Source of the DNA: Promethearchaeota archaeon
Lineage (GTDB): Archaea; Asgardarchaeota; Lokiarchaeia; Sigyniarchaeales; SOKP01
NCBI GenBank assembly: GCA_048941015.1
Contig: JBHLNZ010000055.1
Coordinates: 1-19,676 of the forward strand
DNA: 19,676 bases
Reading direction: 5' to 3'
Position numbers and translations under genes: made by a program. This document shows, piece after piece, positions 5,842-15,914 of this stretch (within the stretch, counting starts at the first letter, position 1; every line of letters begins with the position of its first letter). The notes under the pieces are model-generated. The model saw only the letters and a program-made list of their open reading frames with translations. It did no database searches and had not been told where the DNA came from.

Positions 5842-6279
5842 TTATAAGACTTTTAGTGGGCCTAACTCTTTAATCTCATTTGTAAATTCTGTTATTAAGT
5901 CTGCAAAACGTTTACCTTCTGAAGCACTTACCCATTCCAGACGCACTCGCTTTTCATTTATACCTAATTGTTTAATAATAATATTATGCAATCTTTCAAA
6001 TCTTTCCCTGGCATATTCATTACCAGAGATATAATGACAGTCACCAATATGACACCCCGTTATTAAAACACCATCAGCACCATCCTTCAAGGCCCTGATT
6101 ATAAAAGAAGGATCAACCCTTCCTGAACACATTACACGTACAATTCTCATATTTGGAGGGTATTGAAACCTTGAAACTCCAGCTAAATCAGCTCCAGCAT
6201 AAGAACACCAATTACAACAAAAAACCAAAATTTCTGGATTAAAATCTGGATACTTTACTTTAGATTTTGCTTTTGGCAT
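5842..6279 (-). CDS. mvhD: MvhD/FlpD [2Fe-2S] subunit, Cys form
   Basis: FCCNWCSYAGADLAG, RVMCSGRVDP, GADGVLITGCHIGDCHY, WVSASEG are hallmark MvhD motifs. Confidence 0.95.
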   Translation of the reverse strand: MPKAKSKVKYPDFNPEILVFCCNWCSYAGADLAGVSRFQYPPNMRIVRVMCSGRVDPSFIIRALKDGADGVLITGCHIGDCHYISGNEYARERFERLHNIIIKQLGINEKRVRLEWVSASEGKRFADLITEFTNEIKELGPLKVL

Positions 6280-6299
6280 AATACATTACCTTTCCATTG

Positions 6300-9200
6300 T
6301 TATGTTTCTAATAAAAATGATTCAATCATAGCAGTTATTTGATCAAAATCATACTGCTTTATAGATATCGCCCCATTCGGGCAAGTTGCAGCACATGTGC
6401 CACAACCTTTACATAAGGCAGAATTTATGAAAGATTTTTTAACTATGAGACTTACATCTTCAAATTCTTTTGTTGATTCCAAAATATCTATAGCATTGTA
6501 AGGGCACACAGATTCGCATTTTCCACATCCGATACAATTTTCTGGATCTGTTTCAGCAACGATGCCTGATGTCGTTATTTCCTTGGCGTTTAAAAATCTA
6601 CTAGCTCTACCTGCTGCCCCATTTGCTTGAGAGATAGTATCTTGAATATTTTTTGGCCATTGAGCACAACCACAAAGAAATATACCATCTGTAGCAAAAT
6701 CTAAGGGCCTTAATTTCACATGAGCTTCAAGAAAAAAGCCGTTTTTATCTAATGGAACTTTTAACATCTTAGCCAATTCCTCTAAATTATCAGCAGGAAT
6801 TATGGGAGTTGATAATATAATCATATCAGTTTCAAATTCAAGAAAATCGTGCAAATTAGTATCATATAATTTAATTTCGTACTTTTCAGGACTTTTACTC
6901 TTTTTATTAATTATGGGAAGATTATCCAAATCATATCTTAGGAAAATTGCATCTTTTCTTCTTTCTCGATAATATTCTTCATATTTCTTCTTTGCCATTT
7001 GAAGATCTCTATAAAGCACAATTATCTCAAGGTTAGGTTTTAGTTTTTTTAAAAGACTAACATTTTTAATTGAATTCCCGCAACATATATTGGAACAGTA
7101 AGTAATTCCCTCTGATTGTCTTGCATTTACACATAAAATTGTAGTTATTCGATTTATATTTCTAAGCCAATCTCCTCCTTCTTCTTTCAGCTTTTGTTCT
7201 AATTCTAATTGGGTTAAAACATTTCTATTGTCTTTCTTATATTGAAATAAATCTTTAGGTTTTAACTCTTGTCCTCCAGTGGCAACAATGATCGTTCCAA
7301 TACTTAATTCTTGCACTTTATTTTTTGAATCAGCGACAGAAACAATATAATTACCAACATATCCTTTAACGTCTTTGACTTTCGCATTTAAGAAAACTTG
7401 AATAATATCATTTTTATTAACTTTTTCTATCGTTTGATTTAAAAATTCTGAGGCGTTTTCTTCAATCGGATATAATACATTAAGGTGATTTAAATTCCCA
7501 CCTAATATTTTTTCCTTTTCGACTATAAATGTTTTGAATCCTTGGCTTGCGATATTTAATGCGGCAGTCATTCCAGCAATTCCACCACCAATGACTAAAG
7601 CTGTAGGAGTGATCTTTAATAGTTCTTCTTTTAAGGGTTTCAATAATCTTGATTTCGCAACAGCCATTCGGATTAAATCTTTAGCTTTTTGAGTTGCAGC
7701 TTCTGCATCATCCATGTGAACCCAAGAACATTGATCTCTTATATTTACCATTTCAAATAAATATTTATTCAAACCCGCTTCTTGACAGGTTTCTTGAAAT
7801 AAAGATTCATGAGTCCTTGGCGTACAAGATGCAACTATAAATCGATTTAAATTATAATTCTTTATTAATTCCTTAATTCGAGCTTGGGAATCAGAACTAC
7901 AGGAATACAAATTATCTTCACAATGAACAACATTCGGTAAAGTTCTTACATATTCTGCCAGTAGAGGTACATGAACATACTTACCTATATTTATTCCACA
8001 ATGACAGATGAGAACACCAATTCTAGGTTCATCTGTAACTTTAACTTCTAACTCTAGTACTTCGATTACTTTTTCTTTAATTTCGTTAAACTTTACAGAA
8101 TTTAAGAATGAAGTGACCTGTCCTGCTACACCACTTGCATCAGCAACAGTTTCTGGGATGTCCATTGGTCCCTGACAAAATCCACATAAATAGATACCCT
8201 CTCTTGTTGATTGGGATTTATGATAATAATCTTTTTCTTTAAAAAAGTTATAATTATCAAGTTCAACTTTCAAAATATCTGACAACCCTTTGGTTCCTTC
8301 AGACGGGACTAATGGGGTTGCTAGTACTACTAGATTAGCTTTAAAATCATGAAATTCGCCTGTTTTTAAATCTTCATAATGAATTATTAGATCTTTACTT
8401 TCTGGATCTTCTTCAATTTTACTTATTTTTGTTTGAAAATATTTTACGCCATACTCTTTTTGAGCCCTTTGTGTAAATTCATAGAAATTTTTACCGTAAG
8501 CTCTTATATCGTGCCGAAATACAAAACATTTCGATTTTTCTGAATGCTCTTTTGTTATAATAGCTTCTTTGGCAGTATACATACAACATACACTAGAACA
8601 ATATGGTACATTCTCATGCAAATCTCTTGAGCCAGCACATTGTATAAAAGCAATTTTTTCAGGTTCATTCTGATCACTCGGTCTTAGGACATGGCCACCA
8701 AAAGGTCCTGAAGCACATAAGATTCTTTCATATTCAAGTGCACTTACCACATTATCAAATCGGTATCCCCATCTTGAAGTTAAATTTTCCGCAGGCATAT
8801 CAAATCCAGTGGCAACAACTATACAACCAACATTTAATTCAATTTCCTTCGGTTTTTGCTCAAAATCGATTGCTTCAGCTTGACAAACTTTTGCACAAAC
8901 TCCACATACATCTTTGTTTATTTTCAAGCATAATTCTGGATCTATTAAATAAACGGGAGGAACAGCTTGAGGAAATGGAATATATGCTGACTTTCTTTTA
9001 CCTAAATTCATATCAAAGAGGTTGGGAACTTCTATTTTAGGACACTTAGAAGCACAGTCACCACATCCTTTACATTTTGTCTCATCTATATATCGGGGTT
9101 TCTTAAGAACTTTTACTTGAAAATCTCCAGCTTTACCAGAGACTTCTTGTACTTCATGGAATGTCATGAGTTCGATATTTGGGTTTCTGAAAACTTCGAC

Positions 9201-9386
9201 CATTTTAGGTGCAAGTATACATAAACTACAATCATTTGTTGGAAATGTCTTATCAAGTTGAGCCATCCTTCCTCCTATTGAGGGCGATTTTTCAACCAAA
9301 TATACTTTATAACCTAATTCTGTTAAATCTAACGAAGTTTGAATTCCAGCGATTCCACCACCAATAACTAAAACTGAACCCTCCAT
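6300..9386 (-). CDS. hdrA: Large tandem HdrA-like flavoprotein (two FAD modules, internal CHCG Fe-S domain, ferredoxin domains), all Cys
   Basis: 1028 aa; GGGIAG twice, QLDKTFPTNDCSLC, FIQCAGSR...CSSVCC, RIGVLICHCG...ASCTPRTHE...NIRDQCSWVH, EAHVKLRPLD, C-terminal 2x CxxCxxCxxxCP; start overlaps upstream stop (TAATG at 9386). Confidence 0.95.
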   Translation of the reverse strand: MEGSVLVIGGGIAGIQTSLDLTELGYKVYLVEKSPSIGGRMAQLDKTFPTNDCSLCILAPKMVEVFRNPNIELMTFHEVQEVSGKAGDFQVKVLKKPRYIDETKCKGCGDCASKCPKIEVPNLFDMNLGKRKSAYIPFPQAVPPVYLIDPELCLKINKDVCGVCAKVCQAEAIDFEQKPKEIELNVGCIVVATGFDMPAENLTSRWGYRFDNVVSALEYERILCASGPFGGHVLRPSDQNEPEKIAFIQCAGSRDLHENVPYCSSVCCMYTAKEAIITKEHSEKSKCFVFRHDIRAYGKNFYEFTQRAQKEYGVKYFQTKISKIEEDPESKDLIIHYEDLKTGEFHDFKANLVVLATPLVPSEGTKGLSDILKVELDNYNFFKEKDYYHKSQSTREGIYLCGFCQGPMDIPETVADASGVAGQVTSFLNSVKFNEIKEKVIEVLELEVKVTDEPRIGVLICHCGINIGKYVHVPLLAEYVRTLPNVVHCEDNLYSCSSDSQARIKELIKNYNLNRFIVASCTPRTHESLFQETCQEAGLNKYLFEMVNIRDQCSWVHMDDAEAATQKAKDLIRMAVAKSRLLKPLKEELLKITPTALVIGGGIAGMTAALNIASQGFKTFIVEKEKILGGNLNHLNVLYPIEENASEFLNQTIEKVNKNDIIQVFLNAKVKDVKGYVGNYIVSVADSKNKVQELSIGTIIVATGGQELKPKDLFQYKKDNRNVLTQLELEQKLKEEGGDWLRNINRITTILCVNARQSEGITYCSNICCGNSIKNVSLLKKLKPNLEIIVLYRDLQMAKKKYEEYYRERRKDAIFLRYDLDNLPIINKKSKSPEKYEIKLYDTNLHDFLEFETDMIILSTPIIPADNLEELAKMLKVPLDKNGFFLEAHVKLRPLDFATDGIFLCGCAQWPKNIQDTISQANGAAGRASRFLNAKEITTSGIVAETDPENCIGCGKCESVCPYNAIDILESTKEFEDVSLIVKKSFINSALCKGCGTCAATCPNGAISIKQYDFDQITAMIESFLLET

Positions 9387-10657
9387 TATTTCTTTTTATC
9401 ACCACTATTTTTAGATTCAATAACTTCTATATGATCGACAAGGAATTCAGAAAAATCTAAAATTTGGATTGATGCGATATCTTCAAAATCATTTTGAAGA
9501 CAAGAAAAATGAATATTACATTTTGGGCAGCTAGTGACTAATTTTAAAGCAGTTGATTTAACTTCCTGCATACGTTTATATCTTAAAGCTTTTGATTTTT
9601 CATTACAATTCATCCATGAATTTACTCCACAACATAAGGTATTTACTTTATTATGAGGCATTTCGTTGAATTTATAGCCTAATTTATTAAATTCTTTAAA
9701 AATTTCTCTTGTTTCTTCAATAATTTTACTATCTTCGGGTAAAAATCGACTTAAACGACATGGATCATGATAAGTGAAGGTAATATCTTCATGATTTTTA
9801 TTTGGGTTTGTAAATTTTATTTTCTTTTCTTTCCAATTTTCATAAACATATTCAATTATGTGTTTAACATCTACTTTTTCGCCATATTCTTCAAAAATTT
9901 TTGCATAATCAACCTTAAGAGTTCGATAACATTCTGCACAAGCCGTAACAATTGAAGTGATTCCCGCTTTTTGAAACATTTCTAAATTTTTCTTAGCTAA
10001 CTTAATAAAGGTCTTTAATTTCCCTTGACCCCAATAAATATCATGTCCACAACAAACCTCTTCCTTAAAAACAACAATAGGTTGTTCTTCAATTTGACAG
10101 AGAATTTTTAATGTGCTTGTGGCAATAGAAGTAGGATTTTCAAATTCATAATTGAAGAAGGGTAAACATCCTACATAATATAATAAATTTCCTTTATTTG
10201 ATACTTTACATCCTTTTGGAACCCAGTCCATATTCCTGCTTGTGTTAATATAGGGACGGCTCATTATTTCAGAAATAGTAGTATACATTCCTTTATGGGC
10301 AACTAATTCATCAGAATTCTGATTTTTTTCATGTCTCATTTTATAACGAGCCATTCTTACAATATCAGCAAAATTAATTTTTTCTGGACAATCTTTAAGG
10401 CATTGATTACAGGTTAAACAATCCCATAAAACCCCACTTTCTAAAACTTTATCTTCAAAACCTTCTAAAATTAGCTGAATTATTTTACTTGGAGTATATT
10501 TCTCAACTTTACTTAATTGACATACTCCACTGCATCTTCCACACTGATAACATTTCTTTAATAAATTTCTTAATTGAGGTTCATAGACTTTTTCTAAATA
10601 TTCATATGTATCTGCAAAAAGCTTTTTCCTCTCTATATCACGTTTTGATTCGGTTAT
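9386..10657 (-). CDS. hdrD: HdrD/GlpC-like Fe-S oxidoreductase (2x[4Fe-4S] HdrC-like domain + two CCG domains), about 423 aa, probable non-canonical ATA start
   Basis: Frame is open from 10675 through the track ORF 10354-9386 and encodes CYQCGRCSGVC and WDCLTCNQCLKDCP upstream of the first ATG; CCG motifs YYVGC/EVCCG/TACAEC and YHDPC/LCCG/TSCPKC; GAGGT SD at 10669-10665 lies 7 nt before ATA at 10657. Exact start is inferred. Confidence 0.85.
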   Translation of the reverse strand: MTESKRDIERKKLFADTYEYLEKVYEPQLRNLLKKCYQCGRCSGVCQLSKVEKYTPSKIIQLILEGFEDKVLESGVLWDCLTCNQCLKDCPEKINFADIVRMARYKMRHEKNQNSDELVAHKGMYTTISEIMSRPYINTSRNMDWVPKGCKVSNKGNLLYYVGCLPFFNYEFENPTSIATSTLKILCQIEEQPIVVFKEEVCCGHDIYWGQGKLKTFIKLAKKNLEMFQKAGITSIVTACAECYRTLKVDYAKIFEEYGEKVDVKHIIEYVYENWKEKKIKFTNPNKNHEDITFTYHDPCRLSRFLPEDSKIIEETREIFKEFNKLGYKFNEMPHNKVNTLCCGVNSWMNCNEKSKALRYKRMQEVKSTALKLVTSCPKCNIHFSCLQNDFEDIASIQILDFSEFLVDHIEVIESKNSGDKKK

Positions 10658-10670
10658 GATTTTTACCTCT

Positions 10671-11783
10671 TTAACTTAAATTTTTCATAAATTCTTCTCT
10701 ACGTTTAATTTTAGCTTTTGAAAATTGAGTTATCAAATTTATCGTTTTATTCTTTTTTGTTTCGTCAAGATCTAATGCTCTTATTACTCCTGCATCTAAA
10801 GCTTTCTTTAACACATCCTTTCCTTTTTTAGTTCTTGGAATTACAGTAGTGTATTTATCTTGTGAACCCAAACCTCCAAAAGAAATATCTGCATAAATAT
10901 TTGTAAAATCATTGCATGCATTGCAAGCAGGACGCATGTAATCCTTTAAATGGTTAAATGGAACATGAATGACTCTTTCTCCACTTCCGATATCTTTTAA
11001 CTTGAAGATAACATCTTCTTTAATGTTTATTTTCTGGATGTCAGTAAATTTTATGTTAAAATCTTTCTCAAATTTTACTATTTGCATTTTTTCAAAGAAA
11101 AAGTTTTCATAACAAAATAAACCAAGACAAATCTCAATATTTTCAGAAGGAGTTACTCCTAAATCTTGCATACACCTTATTGTATAAAGTTGGCATGGAG
11201 TCCCCACTACCGCTAATTTCTTAAATTTATAGTGATTCAATTTTGGAATAGAATGTGTGTATGTACAGAATTTCTGAATTTCATCAAGATGTGGAGAGAT
11301 ATCCAATTTAGCTCCCGATGCTTTAATAAGATCATATTTACTATCAGCAAAAGTAGCTTCTCTCGAGAAAGGAGCATCAGTTTTCGAAACAATAGATCCA
11401 TCAATCAAATTCTTTTCAATTAAGAAGTTAATAATTGAGTTTACTACTCCACCGTCAGTTCCATAATTCAAAAACTCCTTATCTGTTGCTTGACAGGAAT
11501 AAACATCTTCAAAATGCCCAATTGGCAGTAAATTATAATCTGAAAATTGATACGTTTTATTTAACTCATCATCTAATACATGAGTTTGGGGGCAGATACA
11601 ATAACAAATTCCACATTCAAGGCACTTATCTTTATTTAAATATTCAGGAGGTTTGTATGGATCTTTTAATCCAATAACATCATATTCTGCTGAGCTACAA
11701 AAACTAACACAGCCCCCACATTCTTGACATATACCTCTCTTATGAACCTCCTCAATAAGATCTTGAAATGTTTTTGTATTCAT
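10671..11783 (-). CDS. Coenzyme F420 hydrogenase/dehydrogenase beta-subunit family protein (FrhB/FdhB-like) with N-terminal ferredoxin
   Basis: CQECGGCVSFC, CLECGICYCICP, TDGGVV, VVGTPCQ, LGLFCYENF, CNACNDF..YADISFGGLGS. Confidence 0.9.
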   Translation of the reverse strand: MNTKTFQDLIEEVHKRGICQECGGCVSFCSSAEYDVIGLKDPYKPPEYLNKDKCLECGICYCICPQTHVLDDELNKTYQFSDYNLLPIGHFEDVYSCQATDKEFLNYGTDGGVVNSIINFLIEKNLIDGSIVSKTDAPFSREATFADSKYDLIKASGAKLDISPHLDEIQKFCTYTHSIPKLNHYKFKKLAVVGTPCQLYTIRCMQDLGVTPSENIEICLGLFCYENFFFEKMQIVKFEKDFNIKFTDIQKINIKEDVIFKLKDIGSGERVIHVPFNHLKDYMRPACNACNDFTNIYADISFGGLGSQDKYTTVIPRTKKGKDVLKKALDAGVIRALDLDETKKNKTINLITQFSKAKIKRREEFMKNLS

Positions 11784-11793
11784 ATTTGTTTTA

Positions 11794-13299
11794 TCAACTA
11801 TTCTTGTGGTTTTCTAATACAATTGGTTTACAATTTTTTCTTTTTGATGCTGCTATTCTTTCTAGAAGCCCTTGCCCTGGTTTGACATCTTTTAAACTCT
11901 GATATTCAATCAGGCCAGCATCAGCAGCTCCTTTAAAAACTTCATCTCCTTCTTTAGATCTTGTAATTACTGATGAATATCCTCCTTGCGAGCCAATAGA
12001 TCCCACTGAGATATCTGCATAATCTGAAGTTAAGTCTCCACAGTAATGACAATTATTTCTTGCATATGATTTAACTTCTTTTAGATCAACTGACATCTCT
12101 TCTCCAGATTTTAAATTTATAATAAATTTTCCCTTATCTATATTCATTTTGGTCAATTCATTTATATCCTGATCAAATTTATCCTTTGTTAATTTGATGA
12201 TATCCGCATAAGAAAAGGATTCCATACAAAATAATCCTATTTTGTACTTTATATTTTTAAAAAAAGGAAATCCACTAGGAAATAAAGATCCTTTTTCTAA
12301 CGCTCTCATCATACATGGAACACCTACAACAGCAAGTTTATCATACTTTTTCGCTTGATCTATAATTGTTAATGAAGAAGCATTAGCATATTTTGTACCA
12401 CCAGTTTTATATAAATCTTTTACACTTTCTATTATTACTGGTTCAGGTCTCCATAAATCTTTTGAATGTTGAACAGCAATAACAGCATCTACTAATTTAT
12501 TTTCTAATAAATATTCTAAAATAGATGTTACAATTCCACCATCTTGACGTACCTTCTTAATTTCATCCTTAGTAGTACTTGCGGTATAAGCATTAACATA
12601 TCCTCCAATCTTTTCAGAATAGGTCAATGATTTATCTATTTTCTTAATACTTTTATAAGCTTGATTTATTGAAAAGGAGCTAGGGCATACGGTAAAGCAT
12701 AAACCGCATTTCATACAAATTTCTTCATCTATTTTAAGAGTATCTGCGGTAACCTTGATGGCATTTACAGGGCAAACTGAAGAACACCATCCACAATGGC
12801 AACATACTCCCGAATCAAATACGATTGAAACAGGTTCAAAATAATGCTCAATAAAAGTATTTGGTAATTCTTTAGCTTGATATCTGTAAAAATATTCTTC
12901 CTCTTCAACCTCTTTTTCTTCTCCCTTTATCTTCTTTATTACTTTTTTTTTTATAACTTCAATATGTTCTTCTACGTATCCTTGTTCTTTTAAGTATATA
13001 ACATCTCGTATTACGTTTTCAGAAGGGAAATCTTTAATCTTTTTAGCGATTTCCTCCAAAAATAAAGGTTTATCTCCTATTATCTTTTCTAAGACTATTT
13101 TACGTTCGGTTTCAGCATCGATCATAGCATCTAAAATTTCATAGAACTCTTGCTCAGAGTATTTTCCAGATTTTAAAATTTCTTCTTTTGCTTCGAAAAA
13201 AGCTCTCACTTGAAAATTTTCTGAAGCTTTATAAGTGGCATCCAATAAATCTTTAGGAGAAATCCTACTAAATAGTTTATTATTTACTATTTGAACCAT
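11794..13299 (-). CDS. FrhB/FdhB-family protein with ~150-aa N-terminal helical/winged-helix-like extension and ferredoxin domain
   Basis: CCHCGWCSSVCP, CMKCGLCFTVCP, QDGGIVT, GGTKY, VGVPC, IGLFCMESF, CHYCGD...ADISVGSIGS; N-terminal LFLEEIAKKI...SENVIRDVIYLKEQGYV is wHTH-like. Confidence 0.9.
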   Translation of the reverse strand: MVQIVNNKLFSRISPKDLLDATYKASENFQVRAFFEAKEEILKSGKYSEQEFYEILDAMIDAETERKIVLEKIIGDKPLFLEEIAKKIKDFPSENVIRDVIYLKEQGYVEEHIEVIKKKVIKKIKGEEKEVEEEEYFYRYQAKELPNTFIEHYFEPVSIVFDSGVCCHCGWCSSVCPVNAIKVTADTLKIDEEICMKCGLCFTVCPSSFSINQAYKSIKKIDKSLTYSEKIGGYVNAYTASTTKDEIKKVRQDGGIVTSILEYLLENKLVDAVIAVQHSKDLWRPEPVIIESVKDLYKTGGTKYANASSLTIIDQAKKYDKLAVVGVPCMMRALEKGSLFPSGFPFFKNIKYKIGLFCMESFSYADIIKLTKDKFDQDINELTKMNIDKGKFIINLKSGEEMSVDLKEVKSYARNNCHYCGDLTSDYADISVGSIGSQGGYSSVITRSKEGDEVFKGAADAGLIEYQSLKDVKPGQGLLERIAASKRKNCKPIVLENHKNS

Positions 13300-13353: not shown

Positions 13354-13375
13354 AAAAACCCCTCCCTTTGCGAGG
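13354..13375 (-). terminator. Short GC hairpin plus U-tract downstream of the SECIS (possible terminator or processing site)
   Basis: Minus strand CCUC-GCAAAGG-GAGG followed by GGUUUUU; only a 4-bp stem. Confidence 0.3.
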
Positions 13376-13378
13376 TAA

Positions 13379-13414
13379 GTCGTCTTATAACTAATATTTG
13401 ATTATAAGATTCAT
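13379..13414 (-). ncRNA. Eukaryote-like (Lokiarchaeota-type) SECIS element in the 3' UTR of mvhD(Sec)
   Basis: Minus strand AUGAA-UCUUAUAAU-CAAAUAUUA-GUUAUAAGA-CGAC: AUGA...GA core, 8 Watson-Crick pairs plus one U-G pair, AAA in the apical loop; begins 1 nt after the UAG stop of a gene with UGA at Cys positions. Confidence 0.85.
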
Positions 13415-13415
13415 T

Positions 13416-13868
13416 CTATGGGGTAGTTACTACTTTTTTTTTTGAAGATTTTATATTCATGACATTTATCGGATTTGGTCCAGCTCGCTTGACTTTTTCA
13501 AAGGCATCCTCAACACTTTTAACTAACTTTTCTGATTCTGCTGAGCTTAACCAATACATATTAACTCTTTGGCTTCCAAAACCTCTTGATTCTAATATTC
13601 TATTCGCTAAATCAACATGTTTTTGAGCTGTATAATTCCCTTTCTTAAATTGGCACTCATCTGGCCTTCATCCGACAACCATAACGCCGTCAGCTCCTGA
13701 TTTAATAGTATATAAGATATGCTTAACATCGACTCTTCCCGTACACTTAACTTTAATGATTTTTACCGAAGGAGTATACTTTAAACGAGCAACTCCAGCC
13801 AAATCCGCAGCACCATATCCTCACTTTAAACAAGCAAACATAATTATATTAAATTTATAATCTTCCAT
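13416..13868 (-). CDS. vhuD: Selenocysteine-containing MvhD/VhuD [2Fe-2S] subunit (150 aa; U16, U67), absent from the ORF track
   Basis: Manual translation MEDYKFNIIMFACLK-U-GYGAADLAGVARLKYTPSVKIIKVKCTGRVD...GADGVMVVG-U-RPDECQFKKGN...WLSSAESEK...GPNPIN...TTP*; TGA at 13823-13821 and 13670-13668 align to Cys in the paralog at 5842-6279; SD GGAGGT upstream; ends with TAG. Confidence 0.93.
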
Positions 13869-13875
13869 CTTTTGT

Positions 13876-15816
13876 CTAACCTCCTTCTAATAATCCATCG
13901 ATTTCAGCAAATAGTTGGTGATCCCGGTAATACCTAATGTCTATAGCTTGTGTGGGGCAACAAGTAGCGCATATTCCGCATCCATCACAATTAGTTTCAT
14001 CAACAACCGCTCCCTTTTCAAAAATAATTTTGATTGCCTTTTTAGGACATTCTTTTTCGCATCTTCGACAAGAAATACAGAAATCATTATTTACATCAGC
14101 AGTAATAAGTTCAATTTGTATTTTTCCTGGTGCTGTTAGTTCTGCAACTTTACTGGCTGCTGCTCTAGCTTGTGACACAGAGTAAGCAATATCCTTTGGA
14201 CCCTGAGCGAAACCAGCGATAAATATACCCTTTGATTTAGTTTCTTGTGGCATTAAACCAAAGTGAGATTCAGTTAAAAATCCATACTTATCGGCATCTA
14301 AATTTAATGCTTTAATAATTTGATGGGTTCCTTCAGATGGTAATGCAGCAGTAGATAATACAACTAAATCAGCGTCTATTTTAATAATTTCATCTGTTAG
14401 TGATGAGTATACTCTAACTTTAACATTTTTAGTTGCCGGATCTTCTGATATTTCGCCTACTTTACCTCGAATCATTCTAATATCTGAATCCTTAGCTCTT
14501 TGGTAATATTCTTCGAACCCTTTTTCATTAGTTCTAATATCGATATAACAAATAGTAATATTCGCATCTGGAAACTCCTCTTTGAGTAGCTTTCCATTCT
14601 TTAAAGCAAGCATACAACAAACTCCACTACAGTAGGTTCTTTCTGCTTCTCTGCTACCAACACATTGGATGAAGAGTATTTCCTTTGGTTTTTTGTTATC
14701 CGAAACACGCCTGACATGACCTTCTAAGGGACCATTAGGCGCCAGCATCCTTTCTAATTGGGCTTGAGTTATTACATTTTCAAATTCTCCATAACCATAC
14801 TCACCATATGGTTCATGAATATCCCAACCAGTTGCTATTATAATTGTTCCAACTTTGAACTTAACTTCCTCAGGCACTTGACTGAAATCAATAGCATCAA
14901 GTTCACAAGCTTCCACACAACTAAAACATTCAACACATGACTCGCGATGAACATCATATAAAAACGGTACCGCTTGACCAAAAGCGATATCAATTGCTTT
15001 TCGAGATCCGAGATTTTCATCGAAGTAATTAGATGTATATACAGGACAAACTTCAGTACACGCTCCACATCCATTACAAGTTTCATTGACATATCTCGGT
15101 TTCATTTCAACGGTTACATCATAATTTCCAACATAACCTGAAACTTCTTTTACCTCGCTAAAACTAAGAATTTCGATATTTTCATGGCGATTAACTTCGA
15201 GCATTTTTGGACCACAGATTCATATAGCGCAATCATCAGTGGGAAATGTTCTGTCTAATTGAGCCATCCTTCCACCAATAGTTGTTTTACTTTCTACTAA
15301 ATAAACTTTAATGCCTTCATTAGCGAGATCTAAAGCAGCATTCATTCCTGCTATACCTCCACCCACGATTAAAGTTGCTTTTTCTACAGGGACTGTTTTA
15401 ATTGGGACAACTTCTAACTCTTTTGCTCGTTCGATACCGCTTTTAACCAGAATCTTTGCTTTTTCTAATGCTTCATCACTATTTTCTGTGCACCATGAGC
15501 AATGTTCTCTTACATTTACCATCTGGAAATAGTAAGGATTTAAATCGGTTTTAGCTATCGATCCCCTATAAATTGGTTCATGAGTTCTTGGTGTTCAAGC
15601 AGATGCTACGATTCGAGTTAACCTTTTTTCTTTAATATCTTCTATTATTTGATTTTGTCCGCTTTCTGTGCATAAAAATGCATGTGTTTTTGCGACCACT
15701 ACATCATCCATTTCTTTCGCAAATTCAGCTAATTTATCGCAATTTATTTTGCCTCGAATATTAATACCTCAATGACACGCGTAGAAACCAATCCGATGCT
15801 TTTCAGATTTTTCCAT
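13876..15816 (-). CDS. hdrA: Selenocysteine-containing heterodisulfide reductase subunit A (646 aa; U16, U74, U199)
   Basis: One frame from ATG 15816: MEKSEKHRIGFYACH-U-GINI...RIVASA-U-TPRTHE...NVREHCSWC...GGGIAG...QLDRTFPTDDCAI-U-ICGPKMLEV..., joining track ORFs 15220-15522 and 13876-15204; TGA at 15771-15769, 15597-15595 and 15222-15220 each align to Cys in the 1028-aa paralog (CHCG, ASCTPRTHE, DCSLCIL). Confidence 0.93.
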
Positions 15817-15900
15817 CTTCTCTTACACATCCACCTCTATTAATACAATTCTGTATAAAATTTAATCTATAAATTATTTTTTATATATTGATCGATTTCC

Positions 15901-15914
15901 TATATAATTTTTTA
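15901..15914 (-). promoter_or_regulatory. Possible BRE/TATA for the hdrA(Sec) operon
   Basis: A-run followed by TTATATA on the minus strand about 85 nt upstream of the ATG; region is very AT-rich, so weak. Confidence 0.3.

Follow-up and report, generated by a model that had tools for sequence, protein, structure and literature searches.

Five UGA codons lie in frame in two adjoining genes of contig JBHLNZ010000055.1 of a Promethearchaeota archaeon, and a preliminary description of this DNA had found a single hairpin resembling a selenocysteine insertion sequence (SECIS) behind the second gene: can one such element serve the UGA codons of two cistrons? We analyzed the whole contig stretch of 19,676 nucleotides (nt), referred to as the window, in which the genes hdrA and vhuD (also named mvhD) and the hairpin, a lokiSECIS, are all located on the minus strand. 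Judging from sequence comparison, we consider it likely that hdrA and vhuD constitute a bicistronic selenoprotein message and that the lokiSECIS at its 3′ end is its sole signal for the insertion of selenocysteine (Sec, U). The phenomenon has already been published for Lokiarchaeota, in 2016 by Mariotti et al. (Mol Biol Evol, PMC4989117) and again in 2024 by Huang, Xiao and Zhang (ISME J, PMC11227280). The features that carry the argument are:

15816-13876, minus strand: hdrA, heterodisulfide reductase subunit A, 646 amino acids with TGA read as U, containing U16, U74 and U199
15771-15769, minus strand: UGA for Sec16 of HdrA, 2355 nt upstream of the SECIS; Sec in 25 of 25 full-length orthologs
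15597-15595, minus strand: UGA for Sec74 of HdrA, from the translation with TGA as U and the ortholog alignment
15222-15220, minus strand: UGA for Sec199 of HdrA, the canonical archaeal HdrA Sec position, from translation and ortholog alignment
13879-13884, minus strand: Shine-Dalgarno-like GGAGGU for vhuD within the last hdrA codons, from the sequence; the last 15 hdrA codons show reduced synonymous variation
13878-13876, minus strand: UAG stop of hdrA, from the sequence
13868-13416, minus strand: vhuD/mvhD (FlpD family), 150 amino acids, Pfam FlpD E = 1.5e-43, containing U16 and U67; stop UAG
13823-13821 and 13670-13668, minus strand: UGAs for Sec16 and Sec67 of VhuD, from the translation with TGA as U
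13414-13380, minus strand: lokiSECIS core hairpin, AUGA-AUCUUAUAA-UCAAAUAUUAG-UUAUAAGAC-GA, 62.8 bits with covariance model R1

The protein encoded by hdrA shows the flavin adenine dinucleotide (FAD)/pyridine-nucleotide oxidoreductase and 4Fe-4S domains expected for HdrA (Pfam). Its U16, U74 and U199 fall on invariant Cys/Sec columns in three paralogs of the same genome and 25 full-length orthologs; the canonical HdrA Sec position is placed at about residue 200 by Mariotti et al. (PMC4989117). In the Cys-type MvhD paralog encoded elsewhere in the window, Cys stands opposite both U16 and U67 of VhuD. The two genes are separated by a spacer of 7 nt (13869-13875), which measures 2-21 nt in the 30 related pairs that we measured. 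The five UGAs in two cistrons, the 7-nt spacer and the distance of about 2.35 kb between the first UGA and the hairpin (2355 nt by our count), as given in the preliminary description, all hold. At residue 49 of HdrA (codon 15670-15672, minus strand) the window has Cys, and 20 of 24 other full-length orthologs have Sec (UGA); UGA is also found at columns 300 and 613 in single orthologs. These differences point to repeated exchange of Sec and Cys within one orthologous group.

The genome carries genes for the Sec machinery. A tRNA-Sec is located at C119:16590-16682 and is adjoined by a gene for SepSecS (370.9 bits); a SelB-like factor is encoded 3 kb away (238 bits, just below the curated cut-off), and a gene for a PSTK-like kinase is present as well.

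The hairpin itself starts 1 nt past the UAG of vhuD with AUGA (13414-13411), which directly precedes the stem, whereas GA (13381-13380) directly follows it. The stem of nine positions (A.C and eight Watson-Crick pairs) is uninterrupted and A+U-rich and carries an 11-nt loop, UCAAAUAUUAG, with A in three of its first five bases and AG at its end. Across the 36 elements of the alignment AUGA does not vary, nor do AAA and the final G of the loop; roughly half of all elements leave the first stem position without a partner. In every feature of sequence and position, the window element fits the geometry of the lokiSECIS as published (PMC4989117), in line with the statement of the preliminary description that eukaryote-like SECIS are known for Lokiarchaeota; to direct Sec insertion is its predicted function. 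The published features also include a loop that begins adenine-rich and closes with G, mostly after an A, the choice of GA or AA behind the stem, and a place near or overlapping the end of a selenoprotein coding sequence.

In order to judge how singular the hairpin is, a bare pattern (AUGA-N19-G-N9-GA) is of limited use, as it is expected 2.65 times per window by chance. Only one copy of it in the window has at least seven of nine stem pairs, namely the hairpin behind vhuD. We furthermore scored every position with R1, a covariance model of the 43-nt core, with all filters off: the hairpin was the sole match in the window at 62.8 bits, a score partly due to construction since the window's own copy is in the seed, and the next best position reached 14 bits. 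This bears out the earlier claim that the only SECIS-like hairpin lies behind mvhD. An Rfam scan of the whole window at E ≤ 10 returned chance matches and no SECIS family; standard SECIS tools likewise miss lokiSECIS (Mariotti et al. 2016, PMC4989117).

In the 3.59-Mb genome we found seven strong elements with an A-rich loop ending in AG, each of them behind an open reading frame (ORF) with in-frame UGA. In four cases the element stands behind an hdrA-vhuD pair, on contigs C5, C44, C131 (the window) and C137, with the same layout in all four pairs. The three further strong elements, at C20:3781-3823 (minus strand, L004), C31:43541-43583 (minus strand, L005) and C130:6313-6355 (minus strand, L006), stand behind very small ORFs with in-frame UGA: a 41-amino-acid Zn-ribbon-like peptide, a Cys/Sec-rich microprotein with several UGAs and a 67-amino-acid membrane-like peptide with GDGUPC. 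Weaker model matches are located at C32:3043-3086 and C53:3538-3585.

The window also contains a second, Cys-type gene pair:

5842-9386, minus strand: internal negative control, Cys-type HdrA-like gene (1028 amino acids, 6300-9386) followed by a Cys-type MvhD gene (145 amino acids, 5842-6279), without UGA and without SECIS

No lokiSECIS follows the stop of this Cys-type MvhD paralog, the best R1 match nearby reaching 8.4 bits, and the paralog therefore serves as the internal negative control for which the preliminary description had taken it.

We then compared the locus with its relatives. A search with VhuD as single protein yielded 30 orthologous loci from Promethearchaeota (Lokiarchaeia) metagenome-assembled genomes (MAGs), with 66-93% identity. 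All 29 complete orthologous loci have retained the hairpin with compensatory changes, as have the three paralogous pairs of the same genome and the further sampled loci that were complete; AA replaces GA after the stem in 4 of the 29 orthologs. In 32 distinct sequences 94% of the stem cells are paired, compared to 38-52% with a slid partner, and changes on both sides are found in eight of nine pairs. The main stem was also recovered by RNAalifold on the orthologs. The covariation proposed as a check in orthologous loci is indeed present. With filters off, R1 finds exactly one match per hdrA-vhuD pair, always behind vhuD, in 46 loci: the window and 45 others (15 related loci and 30 outside the R1 seed, about 185 kb in all). 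The 30 loci outside the seed score 51-58 bits at the same place. All comparative checks suggested in the preliminary description turned out in favor of the proposed operon-level SECIS common to both cistrons.

Stop codons follow a pattern of their own. UGA ends hdrA in none of 30 and none of 39 loci (two partly overlapping sets with some duplicates), where solely UAA or UAG is used, although UGA is the stop of 14.5% of the long ORFs in this genome; that hdrA is never UGA-ended fits a signal acting on the whole message. The vhuD stop, by contrast, is UGA in 25 of 33 loci and in 22 of these it is the UGA of the AUGA core itself, which matches the minimal-distance argument of Mariotti et al. (PMC4989117).

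The distribution of the element beyond these loci is uneven: among 126 sampled genomes from the family to which the window belongs, 122 matched the lokiSECIS model, compared to only 1 among 24 genomes from the six remaining families of the class. In this sample one family thus has the Sec trait with lokiSECIS almost to itself. One contig of a related genome carries two full three-way lokiSECIS about 700 nt apart and away from hdrA/vhuD (L070:719-801 and L070:39-119, both minus strand), probably belonging to two small selenoprotein genes in tandem. The near-identical orthologous contigs L007, L013 and L030 are titled Hodarchaeota, Odinarchaeota and even ‘Sumerlaeota bacterium’; these labels are doubtful because the encoded VhuD is 73-93% identical to the Lokiarchaeial VhuD of the window, and they are probably binning or naming errors.

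If the hairpin behind vhuD is the only signal, hdrA should lack one of its own. A check for further SECIS, coding sequence included, had been recommended; R1 with filters off, synonymous-site entropy and sliding RNAalifold revealed no additional SECIS in hdrA, its 5′ leader or vhuD. The third-position entropy along the hdrA codon alignment dips only in the first 15 and the last 15 codons, the start region and the ribosome-binding site of vhuD, respectively. None of the 90-nt coding windows of hdrA folds better than −2.5 kcal/mol in sliding RNAalifold, compared to −5.9 kcal/mol for the SECIS. The 160-nt leader of hdrA contains conserved boxes and yielded no RNAalifold consensus fold. One of the boxes is a palindrome, AUACAGAAUUGUAU, at 15856-15843 (minus strand), about 27 nt upstream of the hdrA start; the other, AUAUAGGAAAUCGAUCAAU, is located at about 15887-15905 (minus strand), about 40 nt above the palindrome. 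Both are kept in most orthologs and are followed by a strong Shine-Dalgarno-like GAGGUGGA; the boxes are probably an operator or promoter region. A scan for bacterial-type promoters and terminators, a method ill-suited to archaea, remained at chance level.

One site within hdrA nevertheless resembles a SECIS. At about 14475-14441 (minus strand), downstream of all three hdrA UGAs, the codons for MIRGKVGEISED contain AUGA...GA, and the lokiSECIS spacing recurs there in many orthologs, with six to nine of nine possible pairs. On this reading, hdrA would have a recoding element of its own within its coding sequence; we regard this as highly improbable and rejected the site as a dedicated SECIS on account of weak pairing, a missing loop signature and missing model support. 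Only four of nine positions pair in the window (four to nine across orthologs) with a fold of −1.4 kcal/mol, the loop lacks the terminal AG, and the R1 score with filters off is 11 bits in the window, while none of the 45 other loci yields a match at E ≤ 1. AUGA and GA are here the Met-Ile and Glu-Asp codons of a conserved peptide, MIRGKVGE(I/F)SED; the wobble base of the Arg codon changes freely although its partner stays constant, without compensating wobble changes, and the site shows neither a dip in synonymous variation nor a conserved fold. For pattern-based SECIS finders this pseudo-SECIS is a trap. Alternatively, hdrA could be served by a signal of another type, such as an element in the 5′ leader (as in Methanocaldococcus fdhA), short contexts next to each UGA or read-through independent of SECIS. 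The conserved leader boxes and a somewhat low synonymous variation in hdrA codons 1-37, around the first UGA, would be compatible with this possibility. Low variation is usual at gene starts, however, and the palindrome resembles a protein-binding site; the leader folds into no consensus structure, the coding windows stay at or above the −2.5 kcal/mol mentioned, Rfam gives no match, and the avoidance of UGA as hdrA stop fits a signal for the whole message. We therefore hold a different type of signal to be unlikely.

The two genes could also be read from separate messages, with a vhuD promoter within hdrA, a SECIS for vhuD only and an hdrA that is truncated or non-functional. T5 tracts and AT-rich stretches do occur inside hdrA. 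Yet three to five UGAs stand at the same Cys/Sec columns in 25 full-length orthologs while the 646-amino-acid frame is otherwise intact, which argues for purifying selection on read-through of hdrA. Even with an internal promoter, the 7-nt spacer gives the hdrA transcript no end and it would reach the SECIS. We give this explanation a very small chance. That an altered genetic code or errors in sequencing, rather than selenocysteine, account for the UGAs has next to no probability: the bare presence of in-frame UGAs, and nothing more, speaks for it, whereas UGA is a regular stop in this genome, in-frame UGAs occur at Cys columns only and are conserved across independent assemblies, and the genome has tRNA-Sec and SepSecS. 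To the extent that sequence data can tell, this explanation is already refuted.

We thus return to one lokiSECIS for both cistrons. What we observed directly are the genes with their UGAs at Cys/Sec columns, a conserved and covarying element that is unique in each locus, and the Sec machinery. The 7-nt spacer and the Shine-Dalgarno-like motif within hdrA leave no room for a terminator and a promoter between the genes and suggest a single polycistronic transcript with both genes and the SECIS. On this transcript the element would fold into a kink-turn-type AUGA/GA core below a stem of 8-9 basepairs with an A-rich 11-nt loop, seated on a lower helix with a third arm. It would be bound by a factor, together with a SelB/EFSec-type factor and Sec-tRNA(Sec), and would act from a distance, as eukaryotic elements do, whenever a ribosome on this mRNA has arrived at a UGA in either cistron. 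In this way the three hdrA UGAs, 1.8-2.36 kb upstream, and the two vhuD UGAs, 254 and 407 nt upstream, could all be recoded by one SECIS. A UGA too near to the element would escape recoding and could be used as the vhuD stop, whereas the hdrA stop would be restricted to UAA or UAG. Action at a distance is supported by a Methanococcus SECIS in the 3′-untranslated region (UTR) that functions across 520-679 nt and for which distance is not strictly limited (PMC9622424).

Several points weigh against this explanation. We infer the co-transcript, the insertion of Sec into HdrA and the action across the cistron boundary, and our searches detect elements that are lokiSECIS-like or leave a conservation footprint, but no others. 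To our knowledge, no SECIS-binding protein is known in Asgard archaea, and no homologue of SBP2 is known. A Sec-HdrA next to a Cys-only VhuD with the SECIS still in place, which would indicate that the element is kept for the sake of hdrA, was absent among about 100 loci: one Sec or more is found in each VhuD that adjoins a Sec-HdrA in 38 pairs sampled from 150 genomes of the class and in 28 metagenome loci (of the C137-type paralog lineage, where the second VhuD Sec toggles with Cys), and the comparison is for this reason silent on that question. The T5 runs inside the coding sequence make premature termination possible. Finally, Peiter et al. (2025, PMC11881835) reported no activity in M. 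maripaludis for a different element, the SECIS of Loki vhuU.2.

The surroundings of the core hairpin turned out to be structured as well. They comprise the following parts:

13424-13420, minus strand: 5′ strand of lower helix I, ACCCC, formed by the last sense codons of vhuD (Thr-Pro), from the minimum-free-energy fold
13354-13362, minus strand: 3′ strand of helix I, GGGGU (13362-13358), running into a U5 tract, from the fold and strand comparison
13375-13364, minus strand: third arm CCUCGCAAAGGG, following the SECIS arm and preceding the 3′ strand of helix I, from the fold; exact register ambiguous in this copy

Helix I encloses the SECIS arm and the small hairpin, resulting in a three-way junction at 13358-13424 (minus strand). 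A U tract after helix I is present in many, but not all, orthologs; in the window, the U5 tract may represent the transcript end or a terminator. Paralogs and unrelated selenoprotein genes of the genome show the same three-part layout with different sequences. Among 36 elements, helix I is formed by at least 24 different complementary strand pairs, including AGCUCCC/GGGAGCU, UCCUCC/GGAGGA, AUGUGUU/AACACAU and UCCGAAA/UUUCGGA. A control for ‘any enclosing helix’ with shuffled flanks was uninformative because the A+U-rich flanks pair in 72% of the shuffles, and we used the comparison of strand pairs and a model-fitted alignment instead. This alignment, based on R2, a model of 83 positions, contains 68 distinct elements and was itself fitted to the structure, which must be borne in mind with the covariation figures: 86.5% of cells are paired and 6/6 pairs covary in the lower helix, 93% and 9/9 in the main stem, and 77% and 3/3 in the third arm, compared to at most 56% paired cells in slid controls.

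From these data it is quite possible, if somewhat short of probable, that the functional lokiSECIS is a three-way junction composed of a covarying lower helix, the AUGA/GA arm and a conserved third arm, and not the simple hairpin that was published. The third arm is not described in the parts of the text of Mariotti et al. (PMC4989117) and Huang et al. (PMC11227280) on which we draw, figures aside, and the architecture may be undescribed. If the third arm is real, it could help to form a docking site for an archaeal SECIS-binding factor, and its omission could explain the failure of a lokiSECIS in a heterologous reporter.

The genes around the pair complete the picture of the window. Directly downstream, at 9386-13299 (minus strand), two FrhB/FdhB-like genes (501 and 370 amino acids) are followed by an HdrB-like CCG-domain gene. 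Beyond the latter lies the Cys-type HdrA-like/MvhD pair, so that the whole run represents a large electron-bifurcation gene cluster; UGA is found in none of these genes.

How does the arrangement relate to known systems? Mariotti et al. (2016, PMC4989117) described HdrA-VhuD tandem pairs of Lokiarchaeota with one common lokiSECIS, probably on one polycistronic mRNA, with multi-Sec HdrA, up to six UGAs over about 2 kb and an HdrA that is never UGA-ended. The window pair resembles these in gene order, strand, the very short spacer, a multi-Sec HdrA including Sec at about residue 200, a two-Sec VhuD, and AUGA, nine-position stem, 11-nt loop and GA right behind vhuD. The hdrA stop is again never UGA and the same mechanism was proposed. 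Nothing of substance differs; the window pair has five UGAs, and its residue 49 is the Cys already mentioned where most orthologs have Sec. The published drawing shows a single hairpin, to which our analysis adds a covarying lower helix with a third arm. With 1439 Asgard selenoprotein sequences, Huang et al. (2024, PMC11227280) confirmed the common-SECIS arrangement in Asgard MAGs at large: hdrA and frhD are always neighbours, and almost all have one common eSECIS-like structure (Asgard type I). Their AUGA_GA core with AUGA_AA variants and their modelled internal loop and lower stem agree with our element, whereas a hairpin in the 3′ side of the internal loop is absent from the portions of their text considered here (figures aside). 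Comparison with the published Lokiarchaeota selenoproteomes, suggested in the preliminary description for judging novelty, hence decides against it, as the arrangement is explicit in both papers.

With the eukaryotic SECIS type I (RF00031) the window element shares the 3′ location, an AUGA...GA core for which a kink-turn is expected, an apical loop whose adenosines stay unpaired, a lower helix and an effect from afar on several UGAs. It differs by an upper stem of 8-9 instead of about 12-15 basepairs, a conserved AG at the loop end, the third arm, its polycistronic prokaryotic message and the lack of an Rfam match at E ≤ 10. It would thus work like a eukaryotic SECIS, yet it is not a member of that family as modelled. 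The VhuD SECIS of Methanococcales and Methanopyrus (Mariotti et al. 2016, PMC4989117) are likewise found behind vhuD, with two UGAs about 50 codons apart, AUGA and a GAC/AAC motif flanking the main stem and an extra lower stem. However, these methanogen elements have a GAA_A asymmetric internal loop and G+C-rich helices, and hdrA has its own SECIS there, whereas the stem in the window is uninterrupted and A+U-rich and hdrA has none. Bacterial SECIS are hairpins in the coding sequence just past each UGA; in contrast, hdrA shows no conserved fold or internal synonymous constraint. Vertebrate selenoprotein P mRNA also has many UGAs recoded from far-downstream 3′-UTR signals, but there one cistron has two SECIS while here two cistrons have one element.

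The window therefore adds one more well-documented example and not a discovery. A single 3′ SECIS for the UGAs of two cistrons combines eukaryote-style recoding with prokaryotic operon logic, which is rare, and the arrangement bears on the origin of the eukaryotic Sec system, a point made in 2016 and extended in 2024.

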